Source: a virus
Length of the DNA stretch: 64,000 nt
Virus record (IMG/VR): IMGVR_UViG_3300045988_164636
Span: 1 to 64,000 of that record
Direction: 5' to 3' (one strand)
Shown one piece after another: positions 3,844 through 17,422 of this stretch; within the stretch, counting starts at the first letter, position 1, and each line of letters opens with the position of its first letter. Below the pieces are notes generated by a model. The model saw only the letters and a program-made list of their open reading frames with translations. It did not search any database and was not told the origin of the DNA. The position numbers were made by a program, and so were the translations under genes.

Positions 3844-3856
3844 AGGGGGATTTAAA

Positions 3857-4015: not shown

Positions 4016-4029
4016 ATCCTTTCAGTAGG

Positions 4030-4270: not shown

Positions 4271-4339
4271 ATAGATACAGAAAAGGGAAAGAGAGAAAAA
4301 AGAAAAAATAAAAATCCCGAAAAAAATTCTCAAAATCCC

Positions 4340-4368
4340 TTGACAATATCACTTAAATGTGATATAAT
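4340..4368 (+). promoter_or_regulatory. early promoter TTGACA-17-TGaTATAAT
   Basis: -35 at 4340-4345, -10 at 4363-4368. Confidence 0.75.
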
Positions 4369-4438
4369 ATAAGAGTACCAAAAAGGTACAGAAAAATTTT
4401 AACCGCCTTTAAAGGCAGAAATGGAGTTGTTACACATT

Positions 4439-4798
4439 ATGGCAGAATTAAAGATTACTAAGAAGGATATGTTCGCAGAATTGAAGGCAATGGCTGAAAC
4501 TGCGGGTAGAGATGACCTTGTCAAGTTTATCAATCACGAACTGGAATTACTTGCCAAGAAGTCAAGCAAGAGAGTTAAGCCTGAGAATGAGGAAATGTAC
4601 AAGGAAGTAATTACTACACTTGCTACTTTTGATAAGCCTGTTACAGTAAGTGAAATCCTTGCAAGCGGAATGCTTGACATTGCAAAGTATTCAAATCAGC
4701 GTATTGCCGCATTATTAAAGAAGGGTATTGAAAATGACGAGGTAGTCAAGGTTACAGATAAGAAGAAGTCGCTGTTTTCTATCAAGAGCGAGGAATAA
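4439..4798 (+). CDS. winged-helix-like early protein, family copy 1
   Basis: Start at MAELK (GGAG 10 nt upstream); paralogs at 10182, 19678 and (C-terminal part) 62885; acidic tail. Confidence 0.65.
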   Translation: MAELKITKKDMFAELKAMAETAGRDDLVKFINHELELLAKKSSKRVKPENEEMYKEVITTLATFDKPVTVSEILASGMLDIAKYSNQRIAALLKKGIENDEVVKVTDKKKSLFSIKSEE

Positions 4799-4848
4799 TT
4801 CTCACAGGGTGGGCGAAATTCCCACCCCCTATTTAAAGGGGGTATTTA

Positions 4849-5307
4849 ATGATTAGTGCAGAAGAAAAAGAAAAATCAATTCTTAACTATATGCAAACTT
4901 TATCTTTAACAAGAGAAGAAGCAGAACAGTTATGGAATGATGATAATTCAGATGAACTTTTACCAGAACAACAAGAACTGGAAGAAAAAGCAAAAAAGAA
5001 TTTAAAGCGACAGTATGAAATCAATCCCGATAAAGTGCGGAAAAAGGTTGAAAAGGAAAGAAAAGTCAATCTCACCAAAAAAATGTTGCTTGAGAATTTT
5101 GCAGAAACCCTTGAATGTTTAAACATTACAGAGTATACAACATTTACTGAAACTGAAATTGATTTTAAGTATAATGATAAAATATATACTTTAAAATTAA
5201 CAGAACATAAAAAGGGGTGGAACAGAGAAGAAGTTTTAAAGAAACAGATGAAACTTGATAAGTCTAAATTTGCAAATGAAAATAAAGAAAGGAAAATAGA
5301 AATATGA
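4849..5307 (+). CDS. hypothetical protein (paralog of 10609-11010)
   Basis: Shared LTR[ED]EA-x3-W-x-DDN motif and the same position after the wHTH gene. Confidence 0.6.
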   Translation: MISAEEKEKSILNYMQTLSLTREEAEQLWNDDNSDELLPEQQELEEKAKKNLKRQYEINPDKVRKKVEKERKVNLTKKMLLENFAETLECLNITEYTTFTETEIDFKYNDKIYTLKLTEHKKGWNREEVLKKQMKLDKSKFANENKERKIEI

Positions 5308-5510
5308 CTGTTTGGGTATTATATGATGAAATAACTAATTCAGACGGTTTTTCCATAGAAGTTTTTTCAACAAAAGAAAAAGCCTACGCTCGTATAATAT
5401 CACGTTTAAATTATGAAGATTACCCCGAAACCTCAAAAGAAGAATTGATAAATTATATACTAGCTGATGATTTTGAAGGACTGGCTGTCCTTGAAAAGGA
5501 GATAATATGA
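5304..5510 (+). CDS. hypothetical small protein (paralog of 5507-5716)
   Basis: ATGA overlap; both paralogs end in EKEII. Confidence 0.55.
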   Translation: MTVWVLYDEITNSDGFSIEVFSTKEKAYARIISRLNYEDYPETSKEELINYILADDFEGLAVLEKEII

Positions 5511-5716
5511 AAATATATATAGTGGTAGATGACGAAGAAGAACTTGAAGATATGAAAGTATTTTCAAATAAAACTGAAGCAGAAGATTATATGGTAGATT
5601 ACATCTTCAAATGTTATGATACAGAAGTAATACCTTCAAGAGAAGATGTAAGAACATATATACGGGATTATGGATTTTTTGAGGCGATATATTTAATAGA
5701 AAAGGAGATAATATAA
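5507..5716 (+). CDS. hypothetical small protein
   Basis: 69-aa ORF translationally coupled to the previous gene. Confidence 0.55.
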   Translation: MKIYIVVDDEEELEDMKVFSNKTEAEDYMVDYIFKCYDTEVIPSREDVRTYIRDYGFFEAIYLIEKEII

Positions 5717-5717
5717 T

Positions 5718-5915
5718 ATGTATGCTTTAGTTATAGACGGTTGTGATAGTGTAGATATTGCGGAAGATATTGATACTTTACTTGCACAGTATACCGATAA
5801 AGAAGTAAAAGCAGTATTAAAATATGGTATATACTATGAAGTATATGCAAAAGATGAATATAGTGACAATTTTATTTCTACTGGAGATTATATACTTAAA
5901 GCAATAATGAGATAA
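5718..5915 (+). CDS. hypothetical small protein
   Basis: 65-aa ORF, RBS AAGGAGA. Confidence 0.55.
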   Translation: MYALVIDGCDSVDIAEDIDTLLAQYTDKEVKAVLKYGIYYEVYAKDEYSDNFISTGDYILKAIMR

Positions 5916-5922
5916 TACATAT

Positions 5923-5955
5923 AAGGCGGAAATACCTAATCCGCCTTTATATTTT
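5923..5955 (+). terminator. rho-independent terminator
   Basis: AAGGCGGA / TCCGCCTT stem followed by a T-rich tail. Confidence 0.75.
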
Positions 5956-6118
5956 ATTTTCAATACTATACAAAGTCAATGATTGCCCGGTCGCAGCATT
6001 TTCTACGGCAATGCTGCGTTTTCACGTCCGCAATCATTGACTCAACAAATATTTTATAAAAAAAGTATTATATAAAAAATAGTAAAAAATCCCGCAACAG
6101 ATTTGTGCAATTTGACTA

Positions 6119-6147
6119 TTGATTTCTTTTTCATCTTGTGATATAAT
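6119..6147 (+). promoter_or_regulatory. early promoter TTGATT-17-TGaTATAAT (no ORF before the next promoter)
   Basis: -35 at 6119-6124, -10 at 6142-6147. Confidence 0.65.
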
Positions 6148-6214
6148 ATAAGAGTAGTCAAGAGAGATAAGAATTAAAAGAACAAATAAAAGTTTGAAAA
6201 ATTCAAAAAACCTC

Positions 6215-6243
6215 TTGACAAATGATATAAAATGTGTTATAAT
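6215..6243 (+). promoter_or_regulatory. early promoter TTGACA-17-TGtTATAAT
   Basis: -35 at 6215-6220, -10 at 6238-6243. Confidence 0.75.
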
Positions 6244-6296
6244 ATAATCAAGATAAAGAGCTGATAAACTTTAAAAACAGAGAAAAGGATTTAAAT

Positions 6297-6401
6297 ATGA
6301 AAAAATTTTTTGATGAAGTTACTCTTGTTGATATAATCTATGCTACTGTACTATTAATAATAACAGGGGTAGTTTTCTATTTATATTTTATATCTTTTTA
6401 A
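6297..6401 (+). CDS. 34-aa single-TM peptide
   Basis: ATG after AAAAGGA; hydrophobic core IIYATVLLIITGVVFYLYF; too short for the ORF track. Confidence 0.45.
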   Translation: MKKFFDEVTLVDIIYATVLLIITGVVFYLYFISF

Positions 6402-6424
6402 TTAAAGTACAAGTAAATGAAATA

Positions 6425-6676
6425 ATGGGAGTTTTAATCATAATGAAGAATGAAAAATTTTGGGAATTTATTAATTACCTTTGTCTTGCTGGATTAATTA
6501 TAGGTCAAATCACCATTGGTTTTATGTTTTATGTAGGACAAATAATATACTTTATAACAGATATACTTATCTTAATAAGAGTATTTGCTTGTAAGTACCC
6601 TTTAAGTGAAAAAATTAAGAATATAGCACTTACCGCAATTTGTTTAGGTGTTTTAATAGTAAAAATATTTTATTAA
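6425..6676 (+). CDS. small membrane protein (2-3 TM)
   Basis: 83-aa hydrophobic ORF; alternative start ATG 6443 after GGGAG. Confidence 0.55.
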   Translation: MGVLIIMKNEKFWEFINYLCLAGLIIGQITIGFMFYVGQIIYFITDILILIRVFACKYPLSEKIKNIALTAICLGVLIVKIFY

Positions 6677-6691
6677 AAGGAGTTTGATTTT

Positions 6692-6796
6692 ATGATAAAA
6701 GTAAATGGTAGAGAAATGACAAAAGAACAGTTCCGTAATTATATTCTTGCGGAGATGAAGAAAATACGGGAAGAAAAAAAGGAGAAAAAAATATGA
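6692..6796 (+). CDS. 34-aa basic peptide
   Basis: RBS AAAGGAG; ATGA overlap with the next gene. Confidence 0.4.
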   Translation: MIKVNGREMTKEQFRNYILAEMKKIREEKKEKKI

Positions 6797-7026
6797 GAGA
6801 AATAAAAAAGTTTATATCTGTTGATAATAAAGAGTTCGATACTGAAAAGGAATGTGCAGATTATGAACAGAAAATGTTAGATTACATAAACAGTAATCTT
6901 GTATTTACCGAATGTTCGTCTTGTCAATATCATGCTCTTTGCAATTATTTATTTGAAAAGAAGATATGTTATGTAAGTCTTTGTGATTTTATAAAGGAAA
7001 AAACAATGGGGGAATTTAATAAATGA
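6793..7026 (+). CDS. hypothetical Cys-rich small protein
   Basis: 77-aa ORF, RBS AAGGAGA. Confidence 0.55.
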   Translation: MREIKKFISVDNKEFDTEKECADYEQKMLDYINSNLVFTECSSCQYHALCNYLFEKKICYVSLCDFIKEKTMGEFNK

Positions 7027-7247
7027 AAGAAATATATATTGTATTTGGCGAAGATGATTGTGCATTTTGTTGTTCAAATAGAGATACTTTATGGCAAAAA
7101 TTATCTGAATTATTTGGTGGAGCAAGAGTTAGGCTAAATCCGACCGCCATAGATGATTACATTGATTTTTTTGATGAATATACTCACGAGTGGTGTTCAT
7201 CAAATGTACATTATGAAGTAATACGTTGTTACGGGTGCGATGAATAG
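7023..7247 (+). CDS. hypothetical small protein
   Basis: 74-aa ORF, ATGA overlap. Confidence 0.55.
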   Translation: MKEIYIVFGEDDCAFCCSNRDTLWQKLSELFGGARVRLNPTAIDDYIDFFDEYTHEWCSSNVHYEVIRCYGCDE

Positions 7248-7409
7248 TCGCACTTTTATTTTTACTTTAACACTTTAACACTTTAGCGTGGTGAAGTTGC
7301 GGGCGGTTTAGATTAGTGTCCGCCCGATTTGTGCAATCTGCACAAAAACACGCACTTTTTTCACTGAAATTTTGGTCATTTTGACAACAAGCAAATTTCC
7401 TAAAACCTA

Positions 7410-7438
7410 TTGACAAATTTAATTTTTTGTGTTATAAT
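7410..7438 (+). promoter_or_regulatory. early promoter TTGACA-17-TGtTATAAT
   Basis: -35 at 7410-7415, -10 at 7433-7438. Confidence 0.75.
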
Positions 7439-7470
7439 ATAAGTACAGTAAAGGAAAGGAATAAAACGAA

Positions 7471-7626
7471 ATGGTTAAATGCAATTACTGTGGAAGTACC
7501 GCTCAGGTAAAATTTGTAAAAGAAGAAGAAAAAAAGGATTATATTGTAAAATATTACAAGTGCGGTTGCGGAAATAAAATTTCAATTACTTTTAAAAAAA
7601 CACTTGACAAATCCACAAAAGTATGA
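7471..7626 (+). CDS. 51-aa zinc-ribbon protein
   Basis: CxxC at the N-terminus and CGC near residue 31; RBS AAAGGAAAGGA; the next promoter lies inside its 3' end. Confidence 0.5.
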   Translation: MVKCNYCGSTAQVKFVKEEEKKDYIVKYYKCGCGNKISITFKKTLDKSTKV

Positions 7627-7632
7627 TATAAT
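7604..7632 (+). promoter_or_regulatory. early promoter TTGACA-17-TGaTATAAT
   Basis: -35 at 7604-7609, -10 at 7627-7632. Confidence 0.75.
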
Positions 7633-7686
7633 ATAATCAAGATAAGGGAGCTGATAAACCGACAGAACAGAGAAAAGGAACTAAAT

Positions 7687-7938
7687 ATGATGAAGAATAA
7701 GAATTTATGGGTAGTTTCTATAAGCCGTTGTCCGAAATATGTAACTACAACAAAAGAAAAGGCTCTTGAATTGTTAAAAAACTATCTTGAAGAACATATT
7801 GAAGAAATTGAAGAAAAATATTATGGTAAAGAAGATATAGAAATGATTATGACCGAAGTTGAAAAATATAATGACTTCATAGAAAATGTATGTCAAGATT
7901 ATTCTTGTGCAATAGACGAAGTTCTTTATGAAGATTAA
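7687..7938 (+). CDS. hypothetical acidic small protein
   Basis: 83-aa ORF behind the shared leader ATAAGGGAGCTGATAAACCGACA. Confidence 0.55.
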   Translation: MMKNKNLWVVSISRCPKYVTTTKEKALELLKNYLEEHIEEIEEKYYGKEDIEMIMTEVEKYNDFIENVCQDYSCAIDEVLYED

Positions 7939-7952
7939 GGAGGAATAATTAT

Positions 7953-8393
7953 ATGAATGCAATTTATTTAGATATGGACGGAACAATAGCTGATTTATAC
8001 GCAGTACCGAACTGGTTAAAAATGTTGAGGGCGGAAAACCCAGCCCCCTATATACAGGCTGAACCGCTTGTACGATTATCCGCATTAGCAAGACATTTAA
8101 ACAGACTTCAGCGGAAGGGATATATTATAGGTATTATATCGTGGGGAAGTAAACACGCTACCCCCGAATATGATGAAGCAGTAGCAAAGGCAAAAAACTT
8201 TTGGCTCAATAAACATTTACCGAGCGTAAAGTTTGATGAAATACACATTGTGCCCTATGGTACACCAAAAAGTACAGTAGCAAAAGAAAAGAATGGTTAT
8301 TTATTTGATGATGAAGAAAATAACCGTACAGAATGGGGCATAAATGCTTTTGATGTAATTAATATGCTTGATATACTCGGTGAACTTGAATAA
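7953..8393 (+). CDS. HAD-superfamily hydrolase (nucleotidase-like)
   Basis: N-terminal DMDGT (DxDxT) motif; RBS AAGGAGGA. Confidence 0.6.
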   Translation: MNAIYLDMDGTIADLYAVPNWLKMLRAENPAPYIQAEPLVRLSALARHLNRLQRKGYIIGIISWGSKHATPEYDEAVAKAKNFWLNKHLPSVKFDEIHIVPYGTPKSTVAKEKNGYLFDDEENNRTEWGINAFDVINMLDILGELE

Positions 8394-8411
8394 TTAAGGA
8401 GGAACATTTAT

Positions 8412-8609
8412 ATGACAGTAAAGGAATTTTATAATCTTTGTACAAATAATCATTGGGAAGATAAGGAATTAGTTATTGCAGCTCGGGGTGAAGAAATAGA
8501 TAATTATCAGGAATTAACATTTTCTAATGTGTTAATGATAAGTGATTTTTATAGTTGTACTAAAGATGACCATTTAGAGCCAAATACAAGAATAACTTTA
8601 GTAGTATAA
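8412..8609 (+). CDS. hypothetical small protein
   Basis: 65-aa ORF, RBS AAGGAGGA. Confidence 0.55.
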   Translation: MTVKEFYNLCTNNHWEDKELVIAARGEEIDNYQELTFSNVLMISDFYSCTKDDHLEPNTRITLVV

Positions 8610-8634
8610 TGTAAGATATAAAGGATAAATAATT

Positions 8635-8733
8635 ATGATTAACGAAATAATAGCTGATTTAATTTTTGGCGGAATAATACTGGTTTGTCCAGTATCCGCC
8701 TTAATAATGCAAAAGATAAAAGATAAAAAATAA
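8635..8733 (+). CDS. 32-aa single-TM peptide
   Basis: RBS AAAGGA; sequence MINEIIADLIFGGIILVCPVSALIMQKIKDKK. Confidence 0.4.
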   Translation: MINEIIADLIFGGIILVCPVSALIMQKIKDKK

Positions 8734-9045
8734 TAGGCAAGGCGGGCAACCGCCTTCCTTTTCTATCTTCAATACTATACATAATAATATATTGACAGTG
8801 CCAATATTTGCCGGCGGCGCGAATACCACTGAATAGCGCCGCAATTTTGTATAATATTGACAATGTATAGTATTTTATTTTGAAAATATATAAAAAATAA
8901 ATCATTACAAAAATCCCGAAAAATGCAAGGTTAGCCTTATCTAACTTGCAAAAATGGGGGCAATCATTTATTAGGCAAGGTATTCCAAAAAAGTATTGCT
9001 TTTGTTGAAATTTTTTGTGCAAAACGCCGAATTTACGAAAACCTA

Positions 9046-9074
9046 TTGACTTTCCGCCCCAGTTGTGATATAAT
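9046..9074 (+). promoter_or_regulatory. early promoter TTGACT-17-TGaTATAAT (1st of 3 in tandem)
   Basis: -35 at 9046-9051, -10 at 9069-9074. Confidence 0.7.
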
Positions 9075-9145
9075 ATAAGAGTAGTCAGGAGAGATAAGAA
9101 ATTAAAAGAAGCTGACCGCATTCGAAAAAAATTTCTTGAAACCTC

Positions 9146-9174
9146 TTGACAAACAACTGAAAATGTGCTATAAT
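9146..9174 (+). promoter_or_regulatory. early promoter TTGACA-17-TGcTATAAT (2nd of 3)
   Basis: -35 at 9146-9151, -10 at 9169-9174. Confidence 0.7.
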
Positions 9175-9239
9175 AATAGTACAGTCAAGAGAGAGCGGAA
9201 ACCGCTCAAAGAAAATTTTAAAAAAATTCAAAAAACCTC

Positions 9240-9268
9240 TTGACAAATGACACAAAATATGTTATAAT
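9240..9268 (+). promoter_or_regulatory. early promoter TTGACA-17-TGtTATAAT (3rd of 3)
   Basis: -35 at 9240-9245, -10 at 9263-9268. Confidence 0.75.
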
Positions 9269-9324
9269 AATAACAGAAATAAGGGAGCTGATAAACCGAC
9301 AAAACAGAAAAAGGAATTCACTTT

Positions 9325-10080
9325 ATGAATATTGTAGTATTTGACACAGAAACTATAGGTCTGAACAAGCCGTGGGCATATAACATAGGGTATGTTATAT
9401 ATGATACCGAAACTGGCGAAATTTTGGAACAAAAGGATTTTATTGTAGAGCAGATATGGCATAATATACCATTATTTGAAACTGCATACTATGCGGACAA
9501 AAGACCTTTATATGTTAGCCGTATGCGTGGAAAAAAGTGCGTAATGAAGAAATTCGGTCATATCACGCAGGAAATGTATAGAGATTTCAAGAAGTATAAT
9601 ATTGAACTTGCTTACGCTTATAATTCATCTTTTGATAATAGAGTATTTACCTTTAATTGTGAGAGGTTTATGTGTATAAACCCTTTTGATAATATCAATA
9701 TACTTGATATAAGAGGAAACGTTCATAACAAGATAGCTTTTACAGAAGATTTTCAGAATTTTTGCGAACTGAATAATCAGTTTACAGAGAGCGGAAACTA
9801 TTCCACAACAGCGGAAACTGTATATAGATATATAAGTAAAAATATGGAATATATAGAAGAACATACCGCATTAAGTGATAGTCTTGACGAATTAAGAATA
9901 CTTGAAGAAACAATTCATTTAGGCTGTGAATATGGTAAAGAATATAAGACTTATTCAAGCATACCGAGAAATGTAGAGCGAGACCTTGTAATAATAGATA
10001 ATAATTTAGGTGAGACTTGGAAATTCCCTTATACAAAGAGGAAAAATAAGGAAAAGGGAAATTACATTATCCTTAATTAA
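9325..10080 (+). CDS. DEDDh (DnaQ-like) 3'-5' exonuclease
   Basis: Exo I FDTET, Exo II NSSFD, Exo III HTALSD motifs in the canonical order. Confidence 0.8.
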   Translation: MNIVVFDTETIGLNKPWAYNIGYVIYDTETGEILEQKDFIVEQIWHNIPLFETAYYADKRPLYVSRMRGKKCVMKKFGHITQEMYRDFKKYNIELAYAYNSSFDNRVFTFNCERFMCINPFDNINILDIRGNVHNKIAFTEDFQNFCELNNQFTESGNYSTTAETVYRYISKNMEYIEEHTALSDSLDELRILEETIHLGCEYGKEYKTYSSIPRNVERDLVIIDNNLGETWKFPYTKRKNKEKGNYIILN

Positions 10081-10084
10081 TCAC

Positions 10085-10113
10085 TTGACAATAGCACAAA
10101 AATGTGTTATAAT
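10085..10113 (+). promoter_or_regulatory. early promoter TTGACA-17-TGtTATAAT
   Basis: -35 at 10085-10090, -10 at 10108-10113. Confidence 0.75.
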
Positions 10114-10181
10114 ATAAGAGTAGTCAAAAGACTACATAAACAAATTTATCGCCTTTAAGGCAGAAATGGAGTTGTCACGTT

Positions 10182-10553
10182 ATGGCAGAAAAGAAGATTA
10201 CAAAGAGAGAACAGTTTGAGAAGGTCATTGCTATCCTTACAGAGCAGGAGCAGACAGAACTTGTAACATTTATCCAGCACGAAATTGAACTGCTTGATAA
10301 GAAGAAGTCAAGCAAGAAGAAGTCAGATAATACAGAATTACTTGATGAGGTATATGGTTATCTTGTCGGCATGGATAAGCCTTGCAAGGTGAGCGAAATT
10401 ATTACAAGATATAACCTGCTTCCGCCTATGTCAAGTGCAAAGATTACTTCACTTTTAACCGAGCTTGTAAAGCAGGGCAGAGCTACAAAGGAACTTGTTA
10501 AGGGTACGAACTCTTACAAGGCGGTAGAAGAAACAGAAACAGAAGAAGCCTAA
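10182..10553 (+). CDS. winged-helix-like early protein, family copy 2
   Basis: MAEKKITKREQF aligns with MAELKITKKDMF of 4439; same leader and same gene order. Confidence 0.65.
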   Translation: MAEKKITKREQFEKVIAILTEQEQTELVTFIQHEIELLDKKKSSKKKSDNTELLDEVYGYLVGMDKPCKVSEIITRYNLLPPMSSAKITSLLTELVKQGRATKELVKGTNSYKAVEETETEEA

Positions 10554-10608
10554 ATAAAATGGGCAAGGTGAAATTCCTTGCCCCCTTCTTAAGGGGGAGT
10601 GGTAAATT

Positions 10609-11010
10609 TTGGTATATAATTTTAATGGTAAAAAGTTAAGAATAGATGAGAGCGAACTGGAAAAAATTTCCAAAGCCCTTGACTTAACAAGAGATGAAGC
10701 AATTGAAGTATGGCTTGATGATAACGGTTATACCGACAATGAAGAACAAATTGCCCTTGATAATAAAGCAAGTGCTGTAAAAATCAACCATTACGCCAAA
10801 GCAATAGATACCAAACCAAAAGAAAAGAAGCCCAGAAATTACAAGGAGGATTTTGAAAAAATTTCCATAATTAACAATATTTCCGCATTTTTAAGCGGAA
10901 AAGGTTATGAAAATGTAAATATTGAGAATAAAGCCAAGATAATTACATTCAAATGCGGAGCAGATACCTATAAAATAGACTTAATCCGCACAAGATTAAA
11001 TAAAAAATAA
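10609..11010 (+). CDS. hypothetical protein (paralog of 4849-5307)
   Basis: TTG start after GGGGGAG; LTRDEAIEVWLDDN motif. Confidence 0.55.
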   Translation: MVYNFNGKKLRIDESELEKISKALDLTRDEAIEVWLDDNGYTDNEEQIALDNKASAVKINHYAKAIDTKPKEKKPRNYKEDFEKISIINNISAFLSGKGYENVNIENKAKIITFKCGADTYKIDLIRTRLNKK

Positions 11011-11017
11011 TATTTTT

Positions 11018-11049
11018 AAGCAAGATTTGAATAAAATCTTGCTTTTTTT
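11018..11049 (+). terminator. rho-independent terminator
   Basis: AAGCAAGATTT / AAATCTTGCTT stem followed by a T7 run. Confidence 0.8.
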
Positions 11050-11771
11050 ATATATTTTCCGCCAAAAATATTGATATATACATAATATTTAGTCATTATT
11101 TGGCGGAAAATATTATTTTTTACTTACTGTTGTTAGCTATGATAAAATGATAATATTGCGGAACGAGTATATATTCGCACCAAAGTATTGTACTTAAAAA
11201 AATTAGCAAATTTTACTTAATGCCCTCAATACCTTGCCGCATAAATCATTGATAAGCTCCGGGCAGAGCGCGAGAGTCACGCTCTGTTATTCTCTTTTCC
11301 CTAGCCCTATATGCAAAATTTTGATGAAAAAAGTTAAGTCGAAATTAATCTTCGTCTTTCCCAAAACTTTATTTTATTTTCTTGAAATTTAAGGCTACAA
11401 TCTTAAATTAATCTTATAAACGAATATGAGTTCGTATCAAGATTTTCATTTTAAAAAAAGTAAGCAAATTCTTCTTGCGGCAGTTCTTAGGATTCTATAC
11501 AGCCGCACTCCACATTTTTAAAGAACAGCCCGCCAAAAATTCATAGATTTTCATCTTCTTTTGTGAGCAACAGCACAGCAAATAAATGGTTTGTGATTAT
11601 GAGTTTGTTTCGTAGAAAATAATATATAATTTTTTCTACAAATGATTAATATTCCTTATTCTTGCGGGCGGATTGCAAAGGTGTAAGCCCATAACCTCAC
11701 CAAAATTTTCCATATATGCAAATTTTTTATAAATAAAGTTATATCTGGAAAAAATGGAAAAATTCCCGCAA

Positions 11772-11800
11772 TTGACTTTGTTTAAAATTTATGTTATAAT
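11772..11800 (+). promoter_or_regulatory. promoter TTGACT-17-TGtTATAAT
   Basis: -35 at 11772-11777, -10 at 11795-11800. Confidence 0.65.
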
Positions 11801-11827
11801 ATTTAAAAAAGGATTCTTTAAATTCAC

Positions 11828-11856
11828 TTGACTTTTACTAAAAATTATGTTATAAT
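11828..11856 (+). promoter_or_regulatory. promoter TTGACT-17-TGtTATAAT
   Basis: -35 at 11828-11833, -10 at 11851-11856; near-identical copy at 12945-12973. Confidence 0.7.
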
Positions 11857-11890
11857 AAAAATGAGAAAATAAAAGAAAGGAGTGAAATAA

Positions 11891-12295
11891 ATGGAAGTAG
11901 CTTGTAACCAAAAGATAGTCATAGTTGATAAATCTCCCGCCGATAAAAATCATAAATATTCTACTATTAATTTAGAAGCTTGGAAAAATGCTATGAGCAA
12001 ACTTAATAATACTACCTATAAATTATGGGATTATATTATGTTTAATCAGAATAAATATAAATTTGCATTATCCGCAGTTGACTTTTGCAATGTAAGTGGA
12101 GCCAGTCGTTCTACTTATAAAAGAGCGGTAAATGAATTAATTGAAAAAGGCTTTCTAGTATTAACTAACGAAGCTCGCAATGAATATACATTCTATGACT
12201 ATCCTAATCGAGATACAATGCCCGCAACAGAAGATGATATTAATATATCAATAGCAAATGATAATTGCATTAATGCGGAAGGCTTTGTATTTTAA
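11891..12295 (+). CDS. wHTH DNA-binding protein (replication-organizer-like N-terminal fold), paralog A
   Basis: YKLWDYI...FALS..DFC..SGASRSTYKRAVNELIEKGFL aligns with 12573-12869; RBS AAAGGAG. Confidence 0.6.
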   Translation: MEVACNQKIVIVDKSPADKNHKYSTINLEAWKNAMSKLNNTTYKLWDYIMFNQNKYKFALSAVDFCNVSGASRSTYKRAVNELIEKGFLVLTNEARNEYTFYDYPNRDTMPATEDDINISIANDNCINAEGFVF

Positions 12296-12500
12296 ATAGA
12301 TGGCTCATTGATGAGCCATTTTCAATAATTTGAATCACGAATGGGCTAGCTGGCTCATTGATGAGCAATTTTTATCTTAACATGGCTCACTGATGATCAG
12401 AGTTAGCCCATTCGTGATCAATTTTTATCTTATTTTTAATCACGGATGGGCTACAAATATTACAAATAATACATATATTACAATTGTAATATTACAGGGG
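12296..12500. repeat. iteron/operator field
   Basis: TGGCTCATTGATGAGCCA-type dyads at 12301, 12351, 12383; AATCACGRATGGGCTA at 12333, 12404(rev), 12437; CAATTTTTATCTTA twice; ATTACAATTGTAAT palindrome at 12476. Confidence 0.8.
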
Positions 12501-12520
12501 AAATATTACCCGCAGTTGCA

Positions 12521-12549
12521 TTGACTTTTATAAAAATTTATGTTATAAT
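12521..12549 (+). promoter_or_regulatory. promoter TTGACT-17-TGtTATAAT
   Basis: -35 at 12521-12526, -10 at 12544-12549. Confidence 0.7.
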
Positions 12550-12572
12550 TAAAATAAAAAGGAGTAAAATAA

Positions 12573-12869
12573 ATGGAACAGAAGACAATTACTATTGACC
12601 GTACTTTAATTAAAGAAGAAATATCTATTGTATGTCTTTATGCTGCAATGAATAAACTTGATGATACAGTTTTTAAATTATGGACATATATTTTAATTCA
12701 AGAGGAAGCCCAATTTGCCCTATCTATAACCGACTTTTGTAAAATAAGCGGCGAATCTCAATCCACAGTTGAAAGAGCAGTTGTAGAATTAATAGAGAAG
12801 GGGTATCTCCGCTTAATTAATAAAGAAAAAAATACTTATATATTTGAACTTTATCCTTCAAATACATAA
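12573..12869 (+). CDS. wHTH DNA-binding protein, paralog B
   Basis: FKLWTYI...FALSITDFCKISGESQSTVERAVVELIEKGYL; RBS AAAGGAG. Confidence 0.6.
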   Translation: MEQKTITIDRTLIKEEISIVCLYAAMNKLDDTVFKLWTYILIQEEAQFALSITDFCKISGESQSTVERAVVELIEKGYLRLINKEKNTYIFELYPSNT

Positions 12870-12944
12870 TCTTAAGAAGTTATCCTAAACTTCTTTTACA
12901 TCTATATATTAAGTTGTAAAGAGTTTTAAGGATAACTACTTTAT

Positions 12945-12973
12945 TTGACTTTTATTAAAAATTATGTTATAAT
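12945..12973 (+). promoter_or_regulatory. plus-strand promoter firing antisense into minus-strand gene 12986-13723
   Basis: TTGACT 12945-12950, TATAAT 12968-12973; copy of promoter 11828 including the first transcribed bases AAAATGAGAA. Confidence 0.6.
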
Positions 12974-12985
12974 AAAAATGAGAAC

Positions 12986-13723
12986 TCAATTTTCATTCGC
13001 CCAATCTTTCTCATCTATTAATTGAGTTCTTTTCTTGGGATAATAGCCTAATTTATTAATTACTAAATCAACAAATAAATCATAAGAATCCGCAGTTTCT
13101 ATAGCACCAACAGCCGCATCTCTTTCTTCTTTTGTTAAAATACCATTTTTATAATCATCATCTATTGCGGCAATCAGAACATCTACGTTACCATAAGCAG
13201 TAGCCGCACATTCTTTTAATATTTTTAATTCTTCTTCATTAAGTGGGGCAGTTCCTCGTTCATTAGTCCAGATATATTCACTTCTACCTAAATCGCCACG
13301 GTCCGCCAGATGATTGTGTCCATAGTGTTTTACTTTTGAATTATTAGTATAAACTTTAGCAGTATTTAGAGATATTTGAGTATGAACTTCTTTTATATTT
13401 CTCCATATATCTTCTCCAACTCTTGCACAAGTATCTATTCTTTCTTTATATAATACTTCATTAATTTGTCCATTCTTATCTTTGATTTTGCCCCATCTCT
13501 TCGGCATTTCTTTATCAATAATTTCAAATGCTTTTGTATACTCAGGATAAAATACTCTATCAATGTATAATTTTTTACCCTCAAAATGATATTCTGCATA
13601 AGTTTTTAAAAGCTCAAATTTTTTAGCTCTTGTAGTAGATGAACTTCTGCTAATTGAATCTGGTTTTAATCCAAACCAAACCGATAATTCTCTTAAGGTT
13701 ATATAGCCTTCTTTTAATTCCAT
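12986..13723 (-). CDS. hypothetical protein with N-terminal HTH-like segment (paralog of 14274-14987)
   Basis: MELKEGYITLRELSVWFGLKPDSI vs MELQENKIYTSAELAEWFKITPKTF; RBS AAAGGAGA. Confidence 0.65.
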   Translation of the reverse strand: MELKEGYITLRELSVWFGLKPDSISRSSSTTRAKKFELLKTYAEYHFEGKKLYIDRVFYPEYTKAFEIIDKEMPKRWGKIKDKNGQINEVLYKERIDTCARVGEDIWRNIKEVHTQISLNTAKVYTNNSKVKHYGHNHLADRGDLGRSEYIWTNERGTAPLNEEELKILKECAATAYGNVDVLIAAIDDDYKNGILTKEERDAAVGAIETADSYDLFVDLVINKLGYYPKKRTQLIDEKDWANEN

Positions 13724-13770
13724 AATATTTGTCTCCTTTTAAAAAATTTTTATTCTTGATTTTTATTTTA

Positions 13771-13846
13771 GTAAGATAAAGTATCTATAATTTTTAAGCT
13801 ATATATATATTTCTATAGCTTAAAAATTATAGATACTTTATCTTAC
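13771..13846. repeat. perfect 33-bp inverted repeat with 10-nt spacer
   Basis: Arms 13771-13803 and 13814-13846 are exact reverse complements (GTAAGATAAAGTATCTATAATTTTTAAGCTATA). Confidence 0.95.
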
Positions 13847-14009
13847 CATAGATTATTGAAAAAAGATTTCAATAGTTTAATCTATAACGTCCAAAAAATC
13901 AAAGAATAATAATCTAAAATTTAAGATAGAAAGCCTACCAAAAGATAAAAGTTCTACAAAAATAAGATAAAATTAACATAACTAAAAAAATGTTGAACTT
14001 TATCTTAAG

Positions 14010-14038
14010 TTGACTTTTATAAAAAATTATGTTATTTA
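14010..14038 (+). promoter_or_regulatory. weaker plus-strand promoter TTGACT-17-TGtTATTTA, antisense to 14274-14987
   Basis: -35 at 14010-14015, -10 at 14033-14038. Confidence 0.4.
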
Positions 14039-14094
14039 AAACGGTAAACGAGGAAAGGGTAGAGTGATGATAGATGAGGTAGAATGGGCACATT

Positions 14095-14250
14095 CCACTC
14101 AGAGTAAACATCTTAAAATATAATATGAAATATAATATAAAATATAATATATAATATAAAAATAATAACCTCATTCAAGACAAGTATCTTATAATATAAA
14201 ATATATAATATAAAATATAAATAACCCCACTCAGAATAAACATCTTAAAA
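14095..14250. repeat. three roughly 65-nt direct repeat units with TAATATAAAAT microsatellite
   Basis: CCACTCAGAGTAAACATCTTA at 14095, CCTCATTCAAGACAAGTATCTTA at 14169, CCCACTCAGAATAAACATCTTA at 14225, each followed by (ATAATATAAAAT)n. Confidence 0.75.
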
Positions 14251-14273
14251 AAATTTAAAAAAGAAAGAGCAGA

Positions 14274-14987
14274 TTAAAAATCTACTCTCCAATCTTCTTC
14301 TCTCTTCTCAACCTGAACACCAAAACCTACAAAACTTTCAATATTATGAGCAACTTCCGCACAATATTCATCCCACTTATCTTTTTCATAATTTTCAGTA
14401 TAATCAGCCCATTCTTCTTGAGTAATTTCTCCTGATTGATAAGCTTCTCTAAACGCTTGATATTCTTCCGTTTCTTCTCCAAAATTATATTTTTTTCTTA
14501 TATCTTTAATAATCTTCATTTCTAAATTATTAAAATGCAGCATTTCTCCGGAAGGGGTTATTTTACAAAAAATAAAACGACAAGATCCATCTTTTCCACT
14601 TTCTTGCGGATGTTTTTTACTACTTATTTTACCATATCTTCTTTTTCTTTCTTGATTAACATAGTTTTTTAAAGTAGATAATTTAATGTCAAATTTTTCT
14701 TGTCTAAACATTTTTTCTGCAACTTTTGTACCTCTGTCAATATTCTCGCCTTGATACCCCCACATTTCATCAAATAATTGTTTTACTCTCGCAGAAGCTT
14801 TTCCTTTATATTCAAAAATATAAACATCTTTAATCAAGATACCTTTTCTTCCTAAATCTTCGAAAGAACAATAATCCTTTAATATTTCTAATCTTTTAAT
14901 TCTTGTATTAGAAAATGTTTTAGGGGTAATTTTAAACCATTCTGCTAATTCCGCAGATGTATAAATTTTATTTTCTTGTAATTCCAT
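14274..14987 (-). CDS. hypothetical protein with N-terminal HTH-like segment (paralog of 12986-13723)
   Basis: 237-aa ORF, RBS GGAGGAAAAAA. Confidence 0.65.
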   Translation of the reverse strand: MELQENKIYTSAELAEWFKITPKTFSNTRIKRLEILKDYCSFEDLGRKGILIKDVYIFEYKGKASARVKQLFDEMWGYQGENIDRGTKVAEKMFRQEKFDIKLSTLKNYVNQERKRRYGKISSKKHPQESGKDGSCRFIFCKITPSGEMLHFNNLEMKIIKDIRKKYNFGEETEEYQAFREAYQSGEITQEEWADYTENYEKDKWDEYCAEVAHNIESFVGFGVQVEKREEDWRVDF

Positions 14988-15023
14988 ATTTTTTCCTCCA
15001 TTATTCTTAAAGTATCGGCGACA

Positions 15024-15075
15024 ATTCCCGATTTTGTTTCGCTATAATAATATATAGCGAAACAAAATCGGGAAT
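15024..15075. repeat. perfect 23-bp inverted repeat with 6-nt spacer
   Basis: ATTCCCGATTTTGTTTCGCTATA 15024-15046 and its exact reverse complement at 15053-15075, in the leader/promoter region of 14274-14987. Confidence 0.95.
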
Positions 15076-15283
15076 AACTATTTAAATTACGGAATATATT
15101 GTTTTTATTCCATACATTATTAAAAAATAAAATTATCAAGTTATACAAAGTTGACCAAGAGATGCAGAGAATATAAATCTTCTTCTTCCTTAATATAATT
15201 ATCAAAACTTTCTTAAAAGTCCATCAATTATAAAAAGAGCAGATTTTCAATCTGCTCTTAAAAAACAAAAGGAGAAAAGAAAA

Positions 15284-15811: not shown

Positions 15812-15956
15812 GGGCGGATGCGACAAAAAGACTTCCAAGCAAGCAAGCTTGCTTTACAGCCATTTTGTCTTTCCTTGCCCTTAGCAATGCTCTTCCCCCA
15901 AGGGGGAAATTCGCATTGCTGTAAGTTATTGTTCATTTGTTTTTAAAAAAATTTTT

Positions 15957-15965
15957 TGTTATAAT
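15957..15965 (+). promoter_or_regulatory. class II promoter (A/T tract + TGTTATAAT)
   Basis: TTTTTAAAAAAATTTTTTGTTATAATAATTATAGTAAAAAAG. Confidence 0.6.
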
Positions 15966-15999
15966 AATTATAGTAAAAAAGAAAAAGGAGTTAATAATA

Positions 16000-16419
16000 A
16001 TGACAAAAGAAGAAATTTATATTGCGGCATTAGATAATTGTTCAAAGAAAGAAAACTGTTTCAATTGTCCTTATTTGGGGATAAATTGTTGGCAAAAATT
16101 AAGAAAAGACATAAAAAAGAATATAAACCCAGATAATTTTATTGCAGTAGGTTTAATTAAAAAGGGATACGTTAAGTCTGATTATTATCCAATGTGTGCG
16201 GCAATTAATTATAAAGATGTATATTTAAAACCTTTTGAAGATTATACTCAAGAAGTAGAATGGTTTGGAGATATTTATTTTGTAATCCCGCAAAAAGAAA
16301 TATCATATGATGTATACGATGAAAATAGTAATATAATATATAGTGCTTCTACTATTGAAGAAGCAAAAGAATATGTTAATAATTTAACTATCAAAAAGAC
16401 AGAAAAGGAGAAAATATGA
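16000..16419 (+). CDS. Cys-rich protein, tandem paralog 1 of 3
   Basis: Start at MTKEEIYIAALDNC after AAGGAG; C-x-CxxCPY-x-C then FIAVGLIKKGY. Confidence 0.65.
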   Translation: MTKEEIYIAALDNCSKKENCFNCPYLGINCWQKLRKDIKKNINPDNFIAVGLIKKGYVKSDYYPMCAAINYKDVYLKPFEDYTQEVEWFGDIYFVIPQKEISYDVYDENSNIIYSASTIEEAKEYVNNLTIKKTEKEKI

Positions 16420-16850
16420 CAAGAGAAGAAATTTATATTGCGGCATTAGATAACTGTTTAGGCAGAAAGAATGATAATTTAACGTGGGAGAATTGTCAAA
16501 AATGTCCTTACTTTGGAAGAGGCTATTGTCAAAATGAATTAAGAGAAGGTATTGCTTGTAATACTAATCCAGATGCTTTTATTGCGGTTGGGTTAATTAA
16601 AGAAGGATATATTAAGCCATATAAGAATTTCGTATCTGTTGCAATTCCCTATTCGGAAGTAAGTTTGAAGCCTACGAAAGAAAAAAATCAAAAAGTAAAA
16701 TGGCTTAATGATACATATTTTACAATTCCAGAAAAAGAAACAAAATATGATATATATGACAAATATAATAATATAGTATATAGCACTTCATTTATTGAAG
16801 AGGCGACAGATTATATTAAGAACTTAGTTATTAAAGTCGTTACTGATTGA
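16416..16850 (+). CDS. Cys-rich protein, tandem paralog 2 of 3
   Basis: MTREEIYIAALDNC..CQKCPYFGRGYC..FIAVGLIKEGY; ATGA overlap. Confidence 0.65.
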   Translation: MTREEIYIAALDNCLGRKNDNLTWENCQKCPYFGRGYCQNELREGIACNTNPDAFIAVGLIKEGYIKPYKNFVSVAIPYSEVSLKPTKEKNQKVKWLNDTYFTIPEKETKYDIYDKYNNIVYSTSFIEEATDYIKNLVIKVVTD

Positions 16851-16894
16851 AAAGCGGAAATTAAATACAGTTTTTGCGGAAAAGGGTGTTTTTA

Positions 16895-17422
16895 ATGACA
16901 AGAAAAGAAATATATACAGCCGCACTTGTGAATTGCTGCATGGGAGAAGGACTAAATTGCAGAAATTGTCCTTATGACGGCTACAAAAACTGCATATCTG
17001 ATCTTATGACGGATATACGGTATAACGAAATAGATCCAGAAGAATTTATTGCGACAGGTCTTATTAAAAAAGGATATGTATCAAAATCGAATAAAAACGA
17101 ACTTCATTACTATGAAGATGTAGCTATAGAACCTTCTGAAAAAAACAACATTGAAGTAACATGGTTTAAAAACGGATATTATGTAGAAGATAAAAATATT
17201 AAATCATTTCATTTTTTAAGAGATGTAAATGATAAAATTCTTTGTGCTTCCGTCAATTTTGAAAAAGTACGGTGGTATTTTTATCATATAGATATAAAAA
17301 AGAATAATGCGGAATATGAGGTAGTAGATGCATATGGTCAAGTTTTATTTACTTCTACTGATTATGATGCCGTATATAAATATTATCATAACCTATATTT
17401 AGACGAAATAACAAAAGACTAA
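16895..17422 (+). CDS. Cys-rich protein, tandem paralog 3 of 3
   Basis: Start at MTRKEIYTAALVNC; CRNCPY..C..FIATGLIKKGY. Confidence 0.6.
   Translation: MTRKEIYTAALVNCCMGEGLNCRNCPYDGYKNCISDLMTDIRYNEIDPEEFIATGLIKKGYVSKSNKNELHYYEDVAIEPSEKNNIEVTWFKNGYYVEDKNIKSFHFLRDVNDKILCASVNFEKVRWYFYHIDIKKNNAEYEVVDAYGQVLFTSTDYDAVYKYYHNLYLDEITKD

Follow-up and report, generated by a model that had tools for sequence, protein, structure and literature searches.

Minus-strand paralogous gene cassettes with predicted palindromic hairpin leaders in a large phage genome, possibly gated by convergent early transcription

The window analysed is a single 64 kb stretch of DNA from an IMG/VR virus record. It contains two minus-strand open reading frames inside an otherwise plus-strand block, an arrangement noted in a preliminary description of the same DNA and confirmed here by the ORF map and by a local reversal of GC skew. 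The paralogy proposed for the two genes was likewise confirmed by BLASTP (28% identity over 211 aa, E 1e-13). The genes and the features surrounding them are as follows.

12874 to 12941, strand not assigned: imperfect long hairpin between a plus-strand HTH_36 gene (12573-12869) and the promoter at 12945.
12945 to 12973, plus strand: early-consensus promoter, TTGACT-17-TGtTATAAT, firing into the 3' end of paralog 1, whose stop codon is 12 nt away from the end of the -10.
12986 to 13723, minus strand: coding sequence of paralog 1, an ORF of 245 aa with an N-terminal winged-helix-like domain of ~57 aa and a C-terminal alpha/beta domain.
13771 to 13846, minus strand: palindrome 1, with 33-nt perfect arms and a 10-nt AT loop, starting at the conserved anchor G; predicted 5'-terminal stem-loop of the paralog 1 mRNA.
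13847 to 13896, minus strand: promoter-like module of paralog 1, with TTTTGGAC at 13896-13889, a T-run, AATAAT at 13857-13852 and a TATGG anchor; conserved in L013.
13963 to 14007: two further TAAGATAAAR motifs, at 13963-13972 on the plus strand and at 13998-14007 on the minus strand, the second adjoining the -35 of the 14010 promoter.
14010 to 14038, plus strand: decayed early promoter copy, with a -10 of TATTTA after a 20-nt deletion.
14067 to 14123, plus strand: putative mini-ORF of 18 codons, MIDEVEWAHSTQSKHLKI, following the 14010 promoter; the conserved L017 version is MIDKVEWAHLTQDNYLKI, with synonymous changes.
14264 to 14290, minus strand: intrinsic terminator of paralog 2, one-directional and overlapping the stop codon, from the terminator scan.
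14274 to 14987, minus strand: coding sequence of paralog 2, 237 aa, of the same family as paralog 1 and found by the family profile as P0093.
15024 to 15075, minus strand: palindrome 2 (SL2), with 23-nt perfect arms and a 6-nt loop; predicted second leader stem-loop of paralog 2.
15091 to 15111, minus strand: SL1, the stem-loop opening the predicted leader of paralog 2, with a stem of 6 bp from the anchor G and a counterpart in L017.
15109 to 15158, minus strand: promoter-like module of paralog 2, with TTGGTC at 15158-15153, a T-run, AATAAT at 15121-15116 and a TATGG anchor; highly conserved in L017 and L018.
15235 to 15259, minus strand: terminator hairpin, also kept in L017 and L018; it stands upstream of the promoter of paralog 2 and is a copy, at 84%, of that gene's own terminator.

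The two predicted genes are diverged paralogs of an unnamed family carried on large phage contigs, including those from gut metagenomes, and each forms a predicted self-contained expression cassette pointing against the surrounding early genes. Family searches recovered 73 homologs at first and then 589 clusters in metagenomes; one short family locus only was obtained from the metagenome contig scan and 2 loci from a scan of IMG/VR with the family protein profile. Related phages carry 1 to 4 copies, with tandem arrays of 2 to 4, and the family gene is counter-oriented in 8 of the 9 lineages with gene calls. Synteny extends to distant relatives, in which the cassettes likewise lie beside HTH_36 genes. 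The phage GenBank collection gave no DNA or protein match to the region or to either paralog, and the family was not found in 185,579 bacterial and archaeal species-representative genomes searched by protein and by back-translated motif, a search that yielded neither a host nor a prophage link. The 64 kb window contains no lysogeny genes, and no homolog of the sigma-factor genes seen in relatives was found within it. A relation to the phAss-1 group (recoded gut phages, 44.5% GC) was rejected, as this is a different group.

The AF2 model of paralog 1 had a pLDDT of 90.7. The HTH-like character previously suggested for the N-termini was upheld at the level of topology, the modelled order of strand-helix-helix-helix-strand-strand being compatible with a winged helix, and was not upheld by significance. 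The best Foldseek matches of the N-terminal domain were the winged-helix DNA binders TraN, PhnF, SmtB/ArsR and FadR, none significant (E 0.35-2, TM 0.34-0.46), and Pfam HTH models gave only scattered matches to the family, all below threshold. Nothing significant was found in Pfam, PHROG, PADLOC, NCBIfam, PDB sequences or Foldseek against PDB and BFVD. The family fold is confidently predicted and is without a known match, and the protein is probably a nucleic-acid-binding regulator. An HNH nuclease assignment from the string 'HYGHNH' in paralog 1 was rejected, as these residues are not conserved across the family.

To characterize the upstream regions, 17 family cassettes were compared, 13 of which entered a gap-free leader alignment and 15 a count of stem starts. 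The cassettes share an ordered module of TTGGAC box, T-run, AATAAT and xTG, and in the 13 aligned leaders the columns of the GGAC box, the T-run and the xTG anchor were invariant or near-invariant. In 12 of the 15 cassettes counted, no more than 5 nt separate the anchor G from the start of the first leader stem. From this comparison we infer a family-specific promoter-like module of fixed geometry, with a AAAATTTTTGGAC box at about -57 to -42, a T-run, an AATAAT-like -10 and then xTG. This predicted module differs from the phage's early promoters of the form TTGACA-17-TGnTATAAT. The upstream box resembles an UP element; should it be one, host polymerase might use the cassette promoters like any others, and already in the early phase, which would weigh against the gating proposed below. 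The layout of a cassette would then run from the promoter-like module through one or two leader stem-loops, the first at about +1, to a Shine-Dalgarno sequence and the gene, and end in a one-directional terminator. For paralog 2 this terminator folds at -17.5 kcal/mol with a U-run on the gene strand vs -7.1 kcal/mol on the opposite strand, and the hairpin at 15235-15259 would insulate the cassette from the right.

The two perfect inverted repeats that had been reported upstream of the paralogs, with arms of 33 and 23 nt, were recovered, and no other perfect inverted repeat of the hairpin type in the window is as long. Each lies less than 50 nt upstream of the start codon of its paralog. Predicted RNA folding energies were -45.2 kcal/mol (z -10.8) for palindrome 1 and -40.7 kcal/mol (z -6.9) for palindrome 2. 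A reading of them as free-standing cruciform or operator sites upstream of the promoters was not supported: both lie downstream of the conserved promoter-like module and within the predicted 5' leader. Strong leader hairpins were found in 16 of the 17 cassettes, and on this comparison the giant palindromes are predicted to be the family's conserved leader stem-loops, homologous to those stems. In keeping with this, their apex sequence GCTATA-N-TATAGC is found again upstream of family genes in L013, L015 and L016. A candidate promoter inside palindrome 1 was dismissed: L013 does not keep the TATAAT that lies in the palindrome's arm.

The perfect duplexes of 33 and 23 bp are of RNase III-substrate length (about 20 bp or more) and may be transcribed and cut. 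Neither palindrome was called in the intrinsic-terminator scan; neither arm is followed by a U-run, and a GC-rich stem is lacking. At the leader-stem position of L001, L003 (g2 and g4), L005 and L007, the terminator signature of A-tract, stem and U-tract was present, and in relatives the leader stems often look like bidirectional terminators. As the U-tract and GC-rich stems are missing from the window palindromes, their predicted role as a barrier or attenuator is weaker than in those relatives. Searches of Rfam 15 gave only sub-threshold matches to miRNA-precursor models (38 bits vs 90 needed), as expected of any perfect hairpin, and an IMG/VR scan with the palindrome-core pattern recovered three unrelated phages, all without a family gene. 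Leader folding summed to -572 kcal/mol in the sense and -554 kcal/mol in the antisense direction, with 50 vs 44 G-U pairs. This lack of strand asymmetry means that action of the hairpin as RNA or as DNA is not told apart by folding.

Comparison between relatives indicated remodelling of the palindromes. The counterpart of palindrome 1 in L013 is also perfect, with arms of 31 nt vs 33 nt in the window; about 8 positions per arm differ (~7 substitutions and 1 indel), and each difference is mirrored in the other arm. The corresponding proteins are 91% identical overall and 71% in their N-terminal domains. Palindrome 2 is imperfect in L017 and L018, and its perfection in the window is therefore recent; in L017, whose protein is still 80% identical, the outer arms are wholly non-complementary. 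Perfect hairpins can arise and be preserved through template switching (PMC8794818). In the window lineage the leader stems would have been lengthened and made perfect, probably via hairpin-templated copying between arms together with selection for pairing. The mirrored multi-base changes seen against both L013 and L017 resemble quasipalindrome correction by template switching, in which an imperfect repeat is perfected in this way (PMC8794818, PMC7202029). That process is a mutational mechanism and not a function, however, and accounts for the perfection of the stems but not for the retention of hairpins in 16 of 17 cassettes.

The early-promoter pattern had 6 matches in the window vs 0 expected. 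The promoter at 12945-12973 scored 11/12 plus TG, and its reported status as a copy of the promoter at 11828 was confirmed, with 93% identity over 45 nt. No plus-strand terminator was predicted across paralog 1 or between this promoter and the stop codon. A consensus promoter 12 nt from the stop, with no plus-strand terminator beyond it, makes full-length antisense transcription the default expectation, and by prediction two facing promoters, that at 12945 and the module at 13847-13896, have overlapping transcription units at this gene. The face-to-face layout at paralog 1 is kept in L013, L014 and L020. In four independent assemblies the promoter at 12945 has been kept as a perfect consensus with no plus-strand ORF to serve, and the distant cassettes L016 and L010 likewise face orphan consensus promoters.

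The second convergent promoter did not match its initial description as a TATAAT-type promoter at the 3' end of paralog 2. The copy at 14010-14038 has 3 mismatches, all in the -10 hexamer, and alignment of the window with L017 showed that the window has lost 20 nt by deletion, with the -10 cut back to its 5' half and the start region gone. Between this promoter and the paralog 2 stop codon there are also 236 nt, which hold the mini-ORF, AT-rich repeats and the gene's own terminator. The intact counterpart in L017 serves the 18-codon mini-ORF first. The proposed geometry of a promoter directed antisense into each gene was thus retained for paralog 1, where it is conserved in relatives, but for paralog 2 the promoter is damaged in the window and intact in L017.

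Among the 11 lineages examined, the clades of paralog 1 and of paralog 2 (L017) had a convergent promoter, as did L016 and L010, and it was missing from seven (L001/L002, L003, L005, L007, L008, L009 and L015). This distribution indicates that the convergent promoter is not a defining trait of the family and that antisense gating is not essential to it.

The reading that we tentatively prefer, at a little short of an even chance, is that these are insulated backward cassettes with hairpin leaders, possibly gated by early convergent transcription. The promoter at 12945 would send host RNA polymerase antisense through all of paralog 1, and the ancestral promoter at 14010 would have done likewise through paralog 2. 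With antisense transcription arising from early promoters, the cassettes would be held down while those promoters fire and released at their shut-off, and timing of the cassettes by colliding transcription is plausible on the predicted layout. The palindromes would act as hairpins in nucleic acid and not as spaced protein half-sites. On the cassette mRNA, the 5' stem would stabilize or process the message, the perfect duplexes being of RNase III size; in many relatives the leader stems would attenuate transcription; and on the opposite strand the stems would pause or stop antisense polymerases that have passed the gene, before they reach the cassette promoter. The earlier proposal of a 'switch-like circuit' was abandoned, because a switch implies bistability and nothing supporting this was found; temporal gating is proposed instead.

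It is also conceivable, if somewhat unlikely, that the convergent promoters are bystanders. The cassettes would have been inserted or recombined between modules of hairpin, promoter and small gene, with antisense transcription tolerated and the palindromes serving as insulators perfected by template-switch mutation, a documented source of perfect stems (PMC8794818, PMC7202029). Consistent with such an origin, the identity between the 12945 and 11828 promoters spans the first 12 transcribed bases and ends exactly at the cassette boundary, and the L013 cassette is flanked on both sides by directly repeated hairpin-plus-promoter modules. The absence of the convergent promoter from most lineages, the decay of the 14010 copy with no visible loss to the gene, and the recent perfection of palindrome 2 point the same way. 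Mere juxtaposition fits less well with the finding that two paralogs as diverged as 28% identity are both placed, now or in their ancestry, immediately downstream of an early promoter, an arrangement repeated in L016 and L010. It also sits uneasily with the maintenance of the 12945 consensus where it serves no plus-strand ORF, and with a paralog 2 terminator that lets plus-strand transcription through.

A second alternative, which we regard as unlikely, is that the palindromes are DNA operators at which a winged-helix dimer binds its own palindrome and represses its own gene by roadblock just past the start, the long arms conferring specificity for each paralog. The winged-helix topology and the DNA-binding winged helices among its best structural neighbours favour this, as does the possession by each paralog of its own palindrome, with arm sequences that occur nowhere else in the window. 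The two palindromes also share a core, GCTATA-N-TATAGC, confined to these two sites in the window (0.08 expected). TAAGATAAAR motifs, which form the outer ends of palindrome 1, are clustered around it and beside the 14010 promoter; the window holds 9 copies vs 3.8 expected, and 6 of the 9 lie within 12370-14007. However, the spacing of GCTATA and TATAGC is 6 nt in paralog 2, 8 nt in L016 and 10 nt in paralog 1, L013 and L015, and not the fixed half-site spacing expected of a dimeric-repressor operator. A hairpin tolerates a variable loop of 6, 8 or 10 nt while a rigid dimer on B-DNA would not, which favours a hairpin over spaced half-sites. Arms of 23 to 33 bp far exceed known operators, and the winged-helix assignment is statistically non-significant. 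The arm differences between the window and L013, set against the protein and N-terminal identities given above, and the non-complementary outer arms of palindrome 2 in L017 likewise count against an operator.

A more speculative extension, which we consider quite improbable, is that the family protein recognizes its own leader hairpin, as an RNA stem-loop or an extruded cruciform, via the GCUAUA/UAUAGC apex, and together with the convergent early promoter forms a self-limiting timer. If true, this timer would set the exit of a large virulent gut phage from its early programme and would represent a novel class of phage regulators built on a novel fold.

That the cassettes are mobile elements (homing-endonuclease-like or hairpin-dependent transposons), with the palindromes as recognition or end structures, is highly improbable: the copy number of 1 to 4 among related phages, the autonomy of cassettes that each have a promoter and terminator, and the repeated modules on both sides of the L013 cassette would suit such elements, but neither protein has a nuclease, transposase, integrase or HUH motif or fold, or a match to an HUH/Y1 transposase (IS200/IS605-type) or protelomerase (Pfam, NCBIfam, PHROG and structure searches), the palindrome is on a single side only, the place beside HTH_36 genes is kept in synteny even among distant relatives and the family was not found in the bacterial and archaeal genomes searched.

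The features of the preferred reading, hairpin leaders with possible convergent gating, have partial parallels in known systems. 5'-Terminal stem-loops act as stabilizers or RNase III sites in the ompA 5' UTR, the B. subtilis aprE leader and the early mRNAs of phages SP82 and T7. The stems described here similarly lie within a few nt of the predicted 5' end and are perfect duplexes of more than 20 bp, of the size cut by RNase III, but they are far longer, with 23 to 33 bp of perfect pairing, as well as AT-rich, and their start sites are predicted. In lambda PR'-tR', a promoter-proximal terminator is read through by the antiterminator Q. The stems of L001, L003, L005 and L007, with A-tract, GC-containing stem and U-tract, resemble such promoter-proximal or bidirectional terminators in lying between promoter and gene, whereas the window palindromes are without the U-tract and GC-rich stem, and no antiterminator was identified.

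Convergent transcription with an antisense RNA occurs in prgQ/prgX of plasmid pCF10, in lambda, where PRE transcription runs antisense through cro, and in P22 sar/ant. These systems likewise have fully or partly overlapping convergent transcripts over the gene of a DNA-binding regulator, but they have defined antisense RNAs and terminators, whereas the partner here is an ordinary early promoter copy without a defined end. In coliphage 186 pR/pL and P2-like switches, as here, a strong and a weaker promoter stand face-to-face across a regulator gene, and the weaker is expected to be depressed by collision and occlusion (PMC5001618). The overlap in those switches is tens of bp vs ~870 bp here, covering the whole gene; the window has no lysogeny genes and no known repressor of either promoter, and bistability is not indicated.

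For large uncultured gut phages, almost no regulatory circuits have been mapped. The present analysis defines a widespread orphan family (589 clusters) with a confident unmatched fold, a cis-regulatory module of promoter-like box and leader stem-loops, and a recurrent head-on layout with early promoters. If the gating is right, it would offer a virulent phage a simple means of delaying a regulator without a dedicated repressor. The palindromes, remodelled on both arms between strains, provide a clean natural example of hairpin maintenance.

The imperfect hairpin at 12874-12941 is the first hairpin past the stop codon for transcripts of paralog 1. Its folding energy is about -20.6 kcal/mol whichever strand is read (z about -4), and L013 has a second copy of it on the other side of the cassette.

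The preliminary description placed two leftward genes in this region, and 12986-13723 (paralog 1) and 14274-14987 (paralog 2) were recovered; no other long ORF lies on the minus strand from 9.3 to 40 kb, and GC skew is reversed over the two. Their paralogy was confirmed at 28% identity (E 1e-13). A word-indexed search returned 73 homologs, and a profile search (E <= 1e-3, clustering at 50% identity) indicated a family of 589 clusters, nearly all of them unnamed and of 230-260 aa. Neither paralog had a match in Pfam, PHROGs, PADLOC or NCBIfam, scanning 42 homologs one by one gave no consistent match, and a profile search of PDB sequences returned nothing. The AlphaFold2 model built on a 42-sequence alignment was confident (pLDDT 90.7, pTM 0.81), and with this family model Foldseek matched nothing in the PDB, where the best E was 0.69, or in BFVD, where it was 0.011 at probability 0.51. 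A search of 185,579 species-representative bacterial and archaeal genomes turned up no member of the family, which within the data searched here is confined to phage-like contigs. The protein family and fold are without known counterpart.

The predicted topology of residues 1-57 was strand-helix-helix-helix-strand-strand. For the N-terminal domain modelled separately (pLDDT 86.5), the top structural neighbours were nearly all winged-helix DNA binders (TraN, PhnF, SmtB/ArsR, FadR), but with scores below significance (E 0.35-2, TM 0.34-0.46), so that the suggested HTH-like character of the N-termini is reasonable but not established. A nuclease motif based on the string 'HYGHNH' in paralog 1 was rejected because the string is not conserved. 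A weak SHOCT-like motif, G-x-I/L-T-x-E-E, was seen at residues 185-205 of paralog 1 and 179-192 of paralog 2; Pfam SHOCT/DUF1707 matches were sub-threshold.

The leader set comprised 260 nt of upstream sequence from each of 17 family genes, in the window and on contigs or loci of relatives (handles L001-L020). Thirteen of the 17 leaders aligned without gaps over 65 nt. Conserved in them are a AAAATTTTTGGAC box, then TAA after approximately 8 nt, a T-run, a hexamer resembling AATAAT/TATAAT, and an xTG anchor (TATGG in both window cassettes). Paralog 1, paralog 2 and L007 share an offset of 44 nt from TGG to ATG. This module is unlike the early promoters in lacking a good -35 element; its upstream box, at about -57 to -38 with the anchor counted as +1, matches the published consensus of an UP element in position and composition. 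The corresponding elements in the window were as follows.

13847-13896, promoter-like module of minus-strand paralog 1, highly conserved in close relatives
15109-15158, promoter-like module of minus-strand paralog 2, highly conserved in close relatives
15235-15259, conserved terminator copy upstream of the paralog 2 promoter, a further element that would insulate the paralog 2 cassette

Leader folding starts directly after the anchor. In 12/15 cassettes the first stem began no more than 5 nt from the anchor G (at nt 1-2 in 10 of these), strong hairpins were present in the leaders of 16/17, and the usual layout in most was a short first stem-loop followed by a long second. The palindrome at 13771-13846 (palindrome 1) is the only, and hence first, stem of the paralog 1 leader, and that at 15024-15075 (palindrome 2) is the second stem of the paralog 2 leader, whose first stem has 6 bp and lies at 15091-15111. 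As both lie between the promoter-like module and the ribosome-binding site, they belong to the predicted 5' leader and are not upstream of the promoter.

The mechanism we consider most likely, although tentatively, is one of insulated counter-oriented cassettes with a leader hairpin, held low by early transcription; its transcripts, the direction of regulation and the protein role are all what we infer. The sequence itself shows the anatomy of the cassettes, the conservation of that anatomy and the mirrored changes in the arms. Every cassette would be driven by its own non-early promoter, carry a hairpin in the leader and end in a one-directional terminator. The hairpin would give structure to the mRNA 5' end, which would serve stability or processing by RNase III; in relatives it would act in attenuation, and it would be met by antisense polymerases just before the cassette promoter. 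Early plus-strand transcription through the genes would keep expression low until the early promoters are shut off.

Convergent or antisense pairs include prgQ/prgX and lambda PRE/cro, and by analogy the arrangement in the window would work alike. The same analogy may be drawn with coliphage 186/P2, whose promoters are paired face to face (PMC5001618). The leader stems are similar to 5' stabiliser hairpins, RNase III sites and promoter-proximal terminators; those of the window fall outside the definition of a terminator.

The plus-strand promoter facing paralog 1 (12945-12973), described as a copy of that at 11828, has full consensus and is 93% identical to the latter over 45 nt. Its -10 ends 12 nt from the stop codon, and neither a plus-strand terminator nor a plus-strand ORF of >= 40 aa was predicted across paralog 1, so the host polymerase should make full-length antisense RNA. 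This promoter is retained in L013, L014 and L020. The preliminary description holds overall except for the second promoter (14010-14038), which is not of the TATAAT type: its -10 is TATTTA, with three mismatches, all in the -10, due to the loss in the window of 20 nt present in a relative, a loss that took away the end of the -10 as well as the start region. The intact ancestral promoter at paralog 2 is seen in L017, where it first serves an 18-codon mini-ORF (MIDEVEWAHSTQSKHLKI; window 14067-14123, plus strand) kept there with synonymous changes. After the mini-ORF come AT-only tandem repeats (window 14118-14225) built of ATATAATATAAAAT units, whose number differs from that in L017; copies of a 24-nt direct repeat (CCACTCAGAGTAAACATCTTAAAA), at 14095 and 14227, bracket them. 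The paralog 2 terminator has -17.5 kcal/mol and a U-run on the gene strand versus only -7.1 kcal/mol from the opposite side, and plus-strand read-through into paralog 2 is therefore predicted to be likely.

Consensus orphan promoters aimed at the 3' end of a family gene were also found in L016 and L010; seven other lineages are without a convergent promoter, and the arrangement is not conserved across the family. Three observations argue that it is dispensable and may derive from the modular and repeat-rich make-up of the region: it is absent in most relatives, it has decayed at paralog 2 in the window phage, and the match to the 11828 promoter breaks off precisely at the cassette boundary, with module copies flanking the L013 cassette. 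These observations also favour an account in which the promoters are bystanders and the hairpins were perfected by mutation; however, two far-diverged paralogs share the convergent arrangement, which argues for some function, and we regard this account as unlikely.

Both palindromes were real as described: palindrome 1 has arms that pair perfectly over 33 nt on either side of a 10-nt AT centre, and palindrome 2 has 23 perfect pairs with 6 nt between the arms. In a whole-window scan they were the longest perfect hairpin repeats (the runner-up had 17-nt arms), and as RNA they folded at -45.2 kcal/mol (z -10.8) and -40.7 kcal/mol (z -6.9), respectively. The long stems have a common apex, GCTATA-(AT-rich loop)-TATAGC, found in the window only in these two palindromes (0.08 expected) and also upstream of family genes in L013, L015 and L016. 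The gap between its halves is 6, 8 or 10 nt, which is compatible with a hairpin loop and incompatible with a dimer on B-DNA, making it quite unlikely that the palindromes are operators for autoregulation. Leader folding energies and G-U counts displayed no strand bias, so the sequence is compatible with a hairpin acting as RNA, DNA or both; no Rfam family was found for it. That the cassettes constitute a mobile element we consider highly improbable.

At palindrome 1, the window and L013 share 84% identity in DNA, and 91% in the proteins, and the palindrome is perfect in both (33-nt and 31-nt arms): the arms differ by ~7 substitutions and one indel, every change being mirrored in the opposite arm. 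In L017 and L018, whose protein is 80% identical, palindrome 2 falls short of perfection: pairing there is limited to an apex of 9 bp and a base of 5 bp, and the difference is confined to one arm; the perfect form is therefore recent. Mirrored multi-base changes and sudden perfection bear the signature of template switching between arms, a process by which stems are known to arise and persist (PMC8794818, PMC7202029); selection for pairing may also be acting. A homologous stem with AAAACACC...GGTGTTTT was found in L001, L003 (gene copies g2 and g4), L005 and L007, and this order of A-tract, stem and U-tract is characteristic of a bidirectional intrinsic terminator. A terminator scan of the window called neither palindrome, a U-run being absent from both stems. 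L017 carries another giant imperfect palindrome at 1-113 (-41.5 kcal/mol, z -8.5), upstream of the terminator and promoter of its paralog 2 homolog; very long inverted repeats are thus recurrent in intergenic DNA of this phage group.

Family genes on long contigs (31 to 167 kb) are nearly always opposed to the surrounding small early-type genes, as in L001/L002, L005, L009, L010, L003/L004/L011 and L016, the sole exception being L015. Tandem arrays occur, with four copies in L003/L004/L011 and two in L016. HTH_36 (DnaD/replication-initiator-like) genes often adjoin the family gene, as they do in the window, where dense repeats lie at 12297-12450 between two plus-strand HTH_36 paralogs: palindrome TGGCTCATTGATGAGCCA x3-4, ATCACGAATGGGCTA x3 (one inverted) and TTTTATCTTA x2. 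By sequence this looks like an iteron, origin or operator field. Six of the nine TAAGATRAAR motifs in the window are inside 12370-14007 (1.6 kb); two form the outer ends of palindrome 1 and another touches the -35 of the 14010 promoter. The motif may be bound by some local DNA-binding protein. In L001 7031-7250 (plus strand), downstream of the family gene and on the same strand, an orphan early-consensus promoter is followed by ~170 nt of hairpin-rich non-coding sequence ending in a terminator, a candidate small RNA antisense toward the adjacent HTH_36 gene. A similar orphan promoter lies between two family copies in L003 (7984-8012).

The window has ~30% GC and encodes gyrase A and B, NAD-dependent DNA ligase, RNA ligase, PhoH, a GH25 lysin, tail-fibre-like proteins and 12 tRNAs. 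No close relative was found among deposited phage genomes; top protein identities were ~35%, to Bacillus, Listeria and Enterococcus phages and human faecal contigs. Paralog 2 is on record in a 127-kb contig, and its relatives are of gut metagenome origin. Twelve strict TTGAC-N17-TGnTATAAT promoters on the plus strand at 2.3 to 12.9 kb suggest an early region served by a host sigma-70/sigma-A type polymerase. Two sequence classes were distinguished among plus-strand early promoters at 2282-12973: class 1 (TTGACAAAT...ATGTGTTATAAT) at 2.3 to 10.1 kb, and class 2 (TTGACTTTTATAAAAAATTATGTTATAAT, spacer conserved) at 11.8 to 14.0 kb; less strict copies of class 2 occur at 27218 and 48770. TAG is a sense codon in relatives (e.g. 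L001 6001-6735, L016 1686-2372 and 2633-3376), read as glutamine in several, and database protein P0019 has Gln at in-frame TAGs; in-frame TAG is absent from paralogs 1 and 2, and the 12 window tRNAs include no suppressor. Three tandem plus-strand paralogs (160, 144 and 182 aa) at 15937-17422, an uncharacterised cysteine-rich family, have in common an N-terminal motif, TxEEIYxAALxNC...CxxCPY, and a second motif, NPDxFIAxGLIKxGY.
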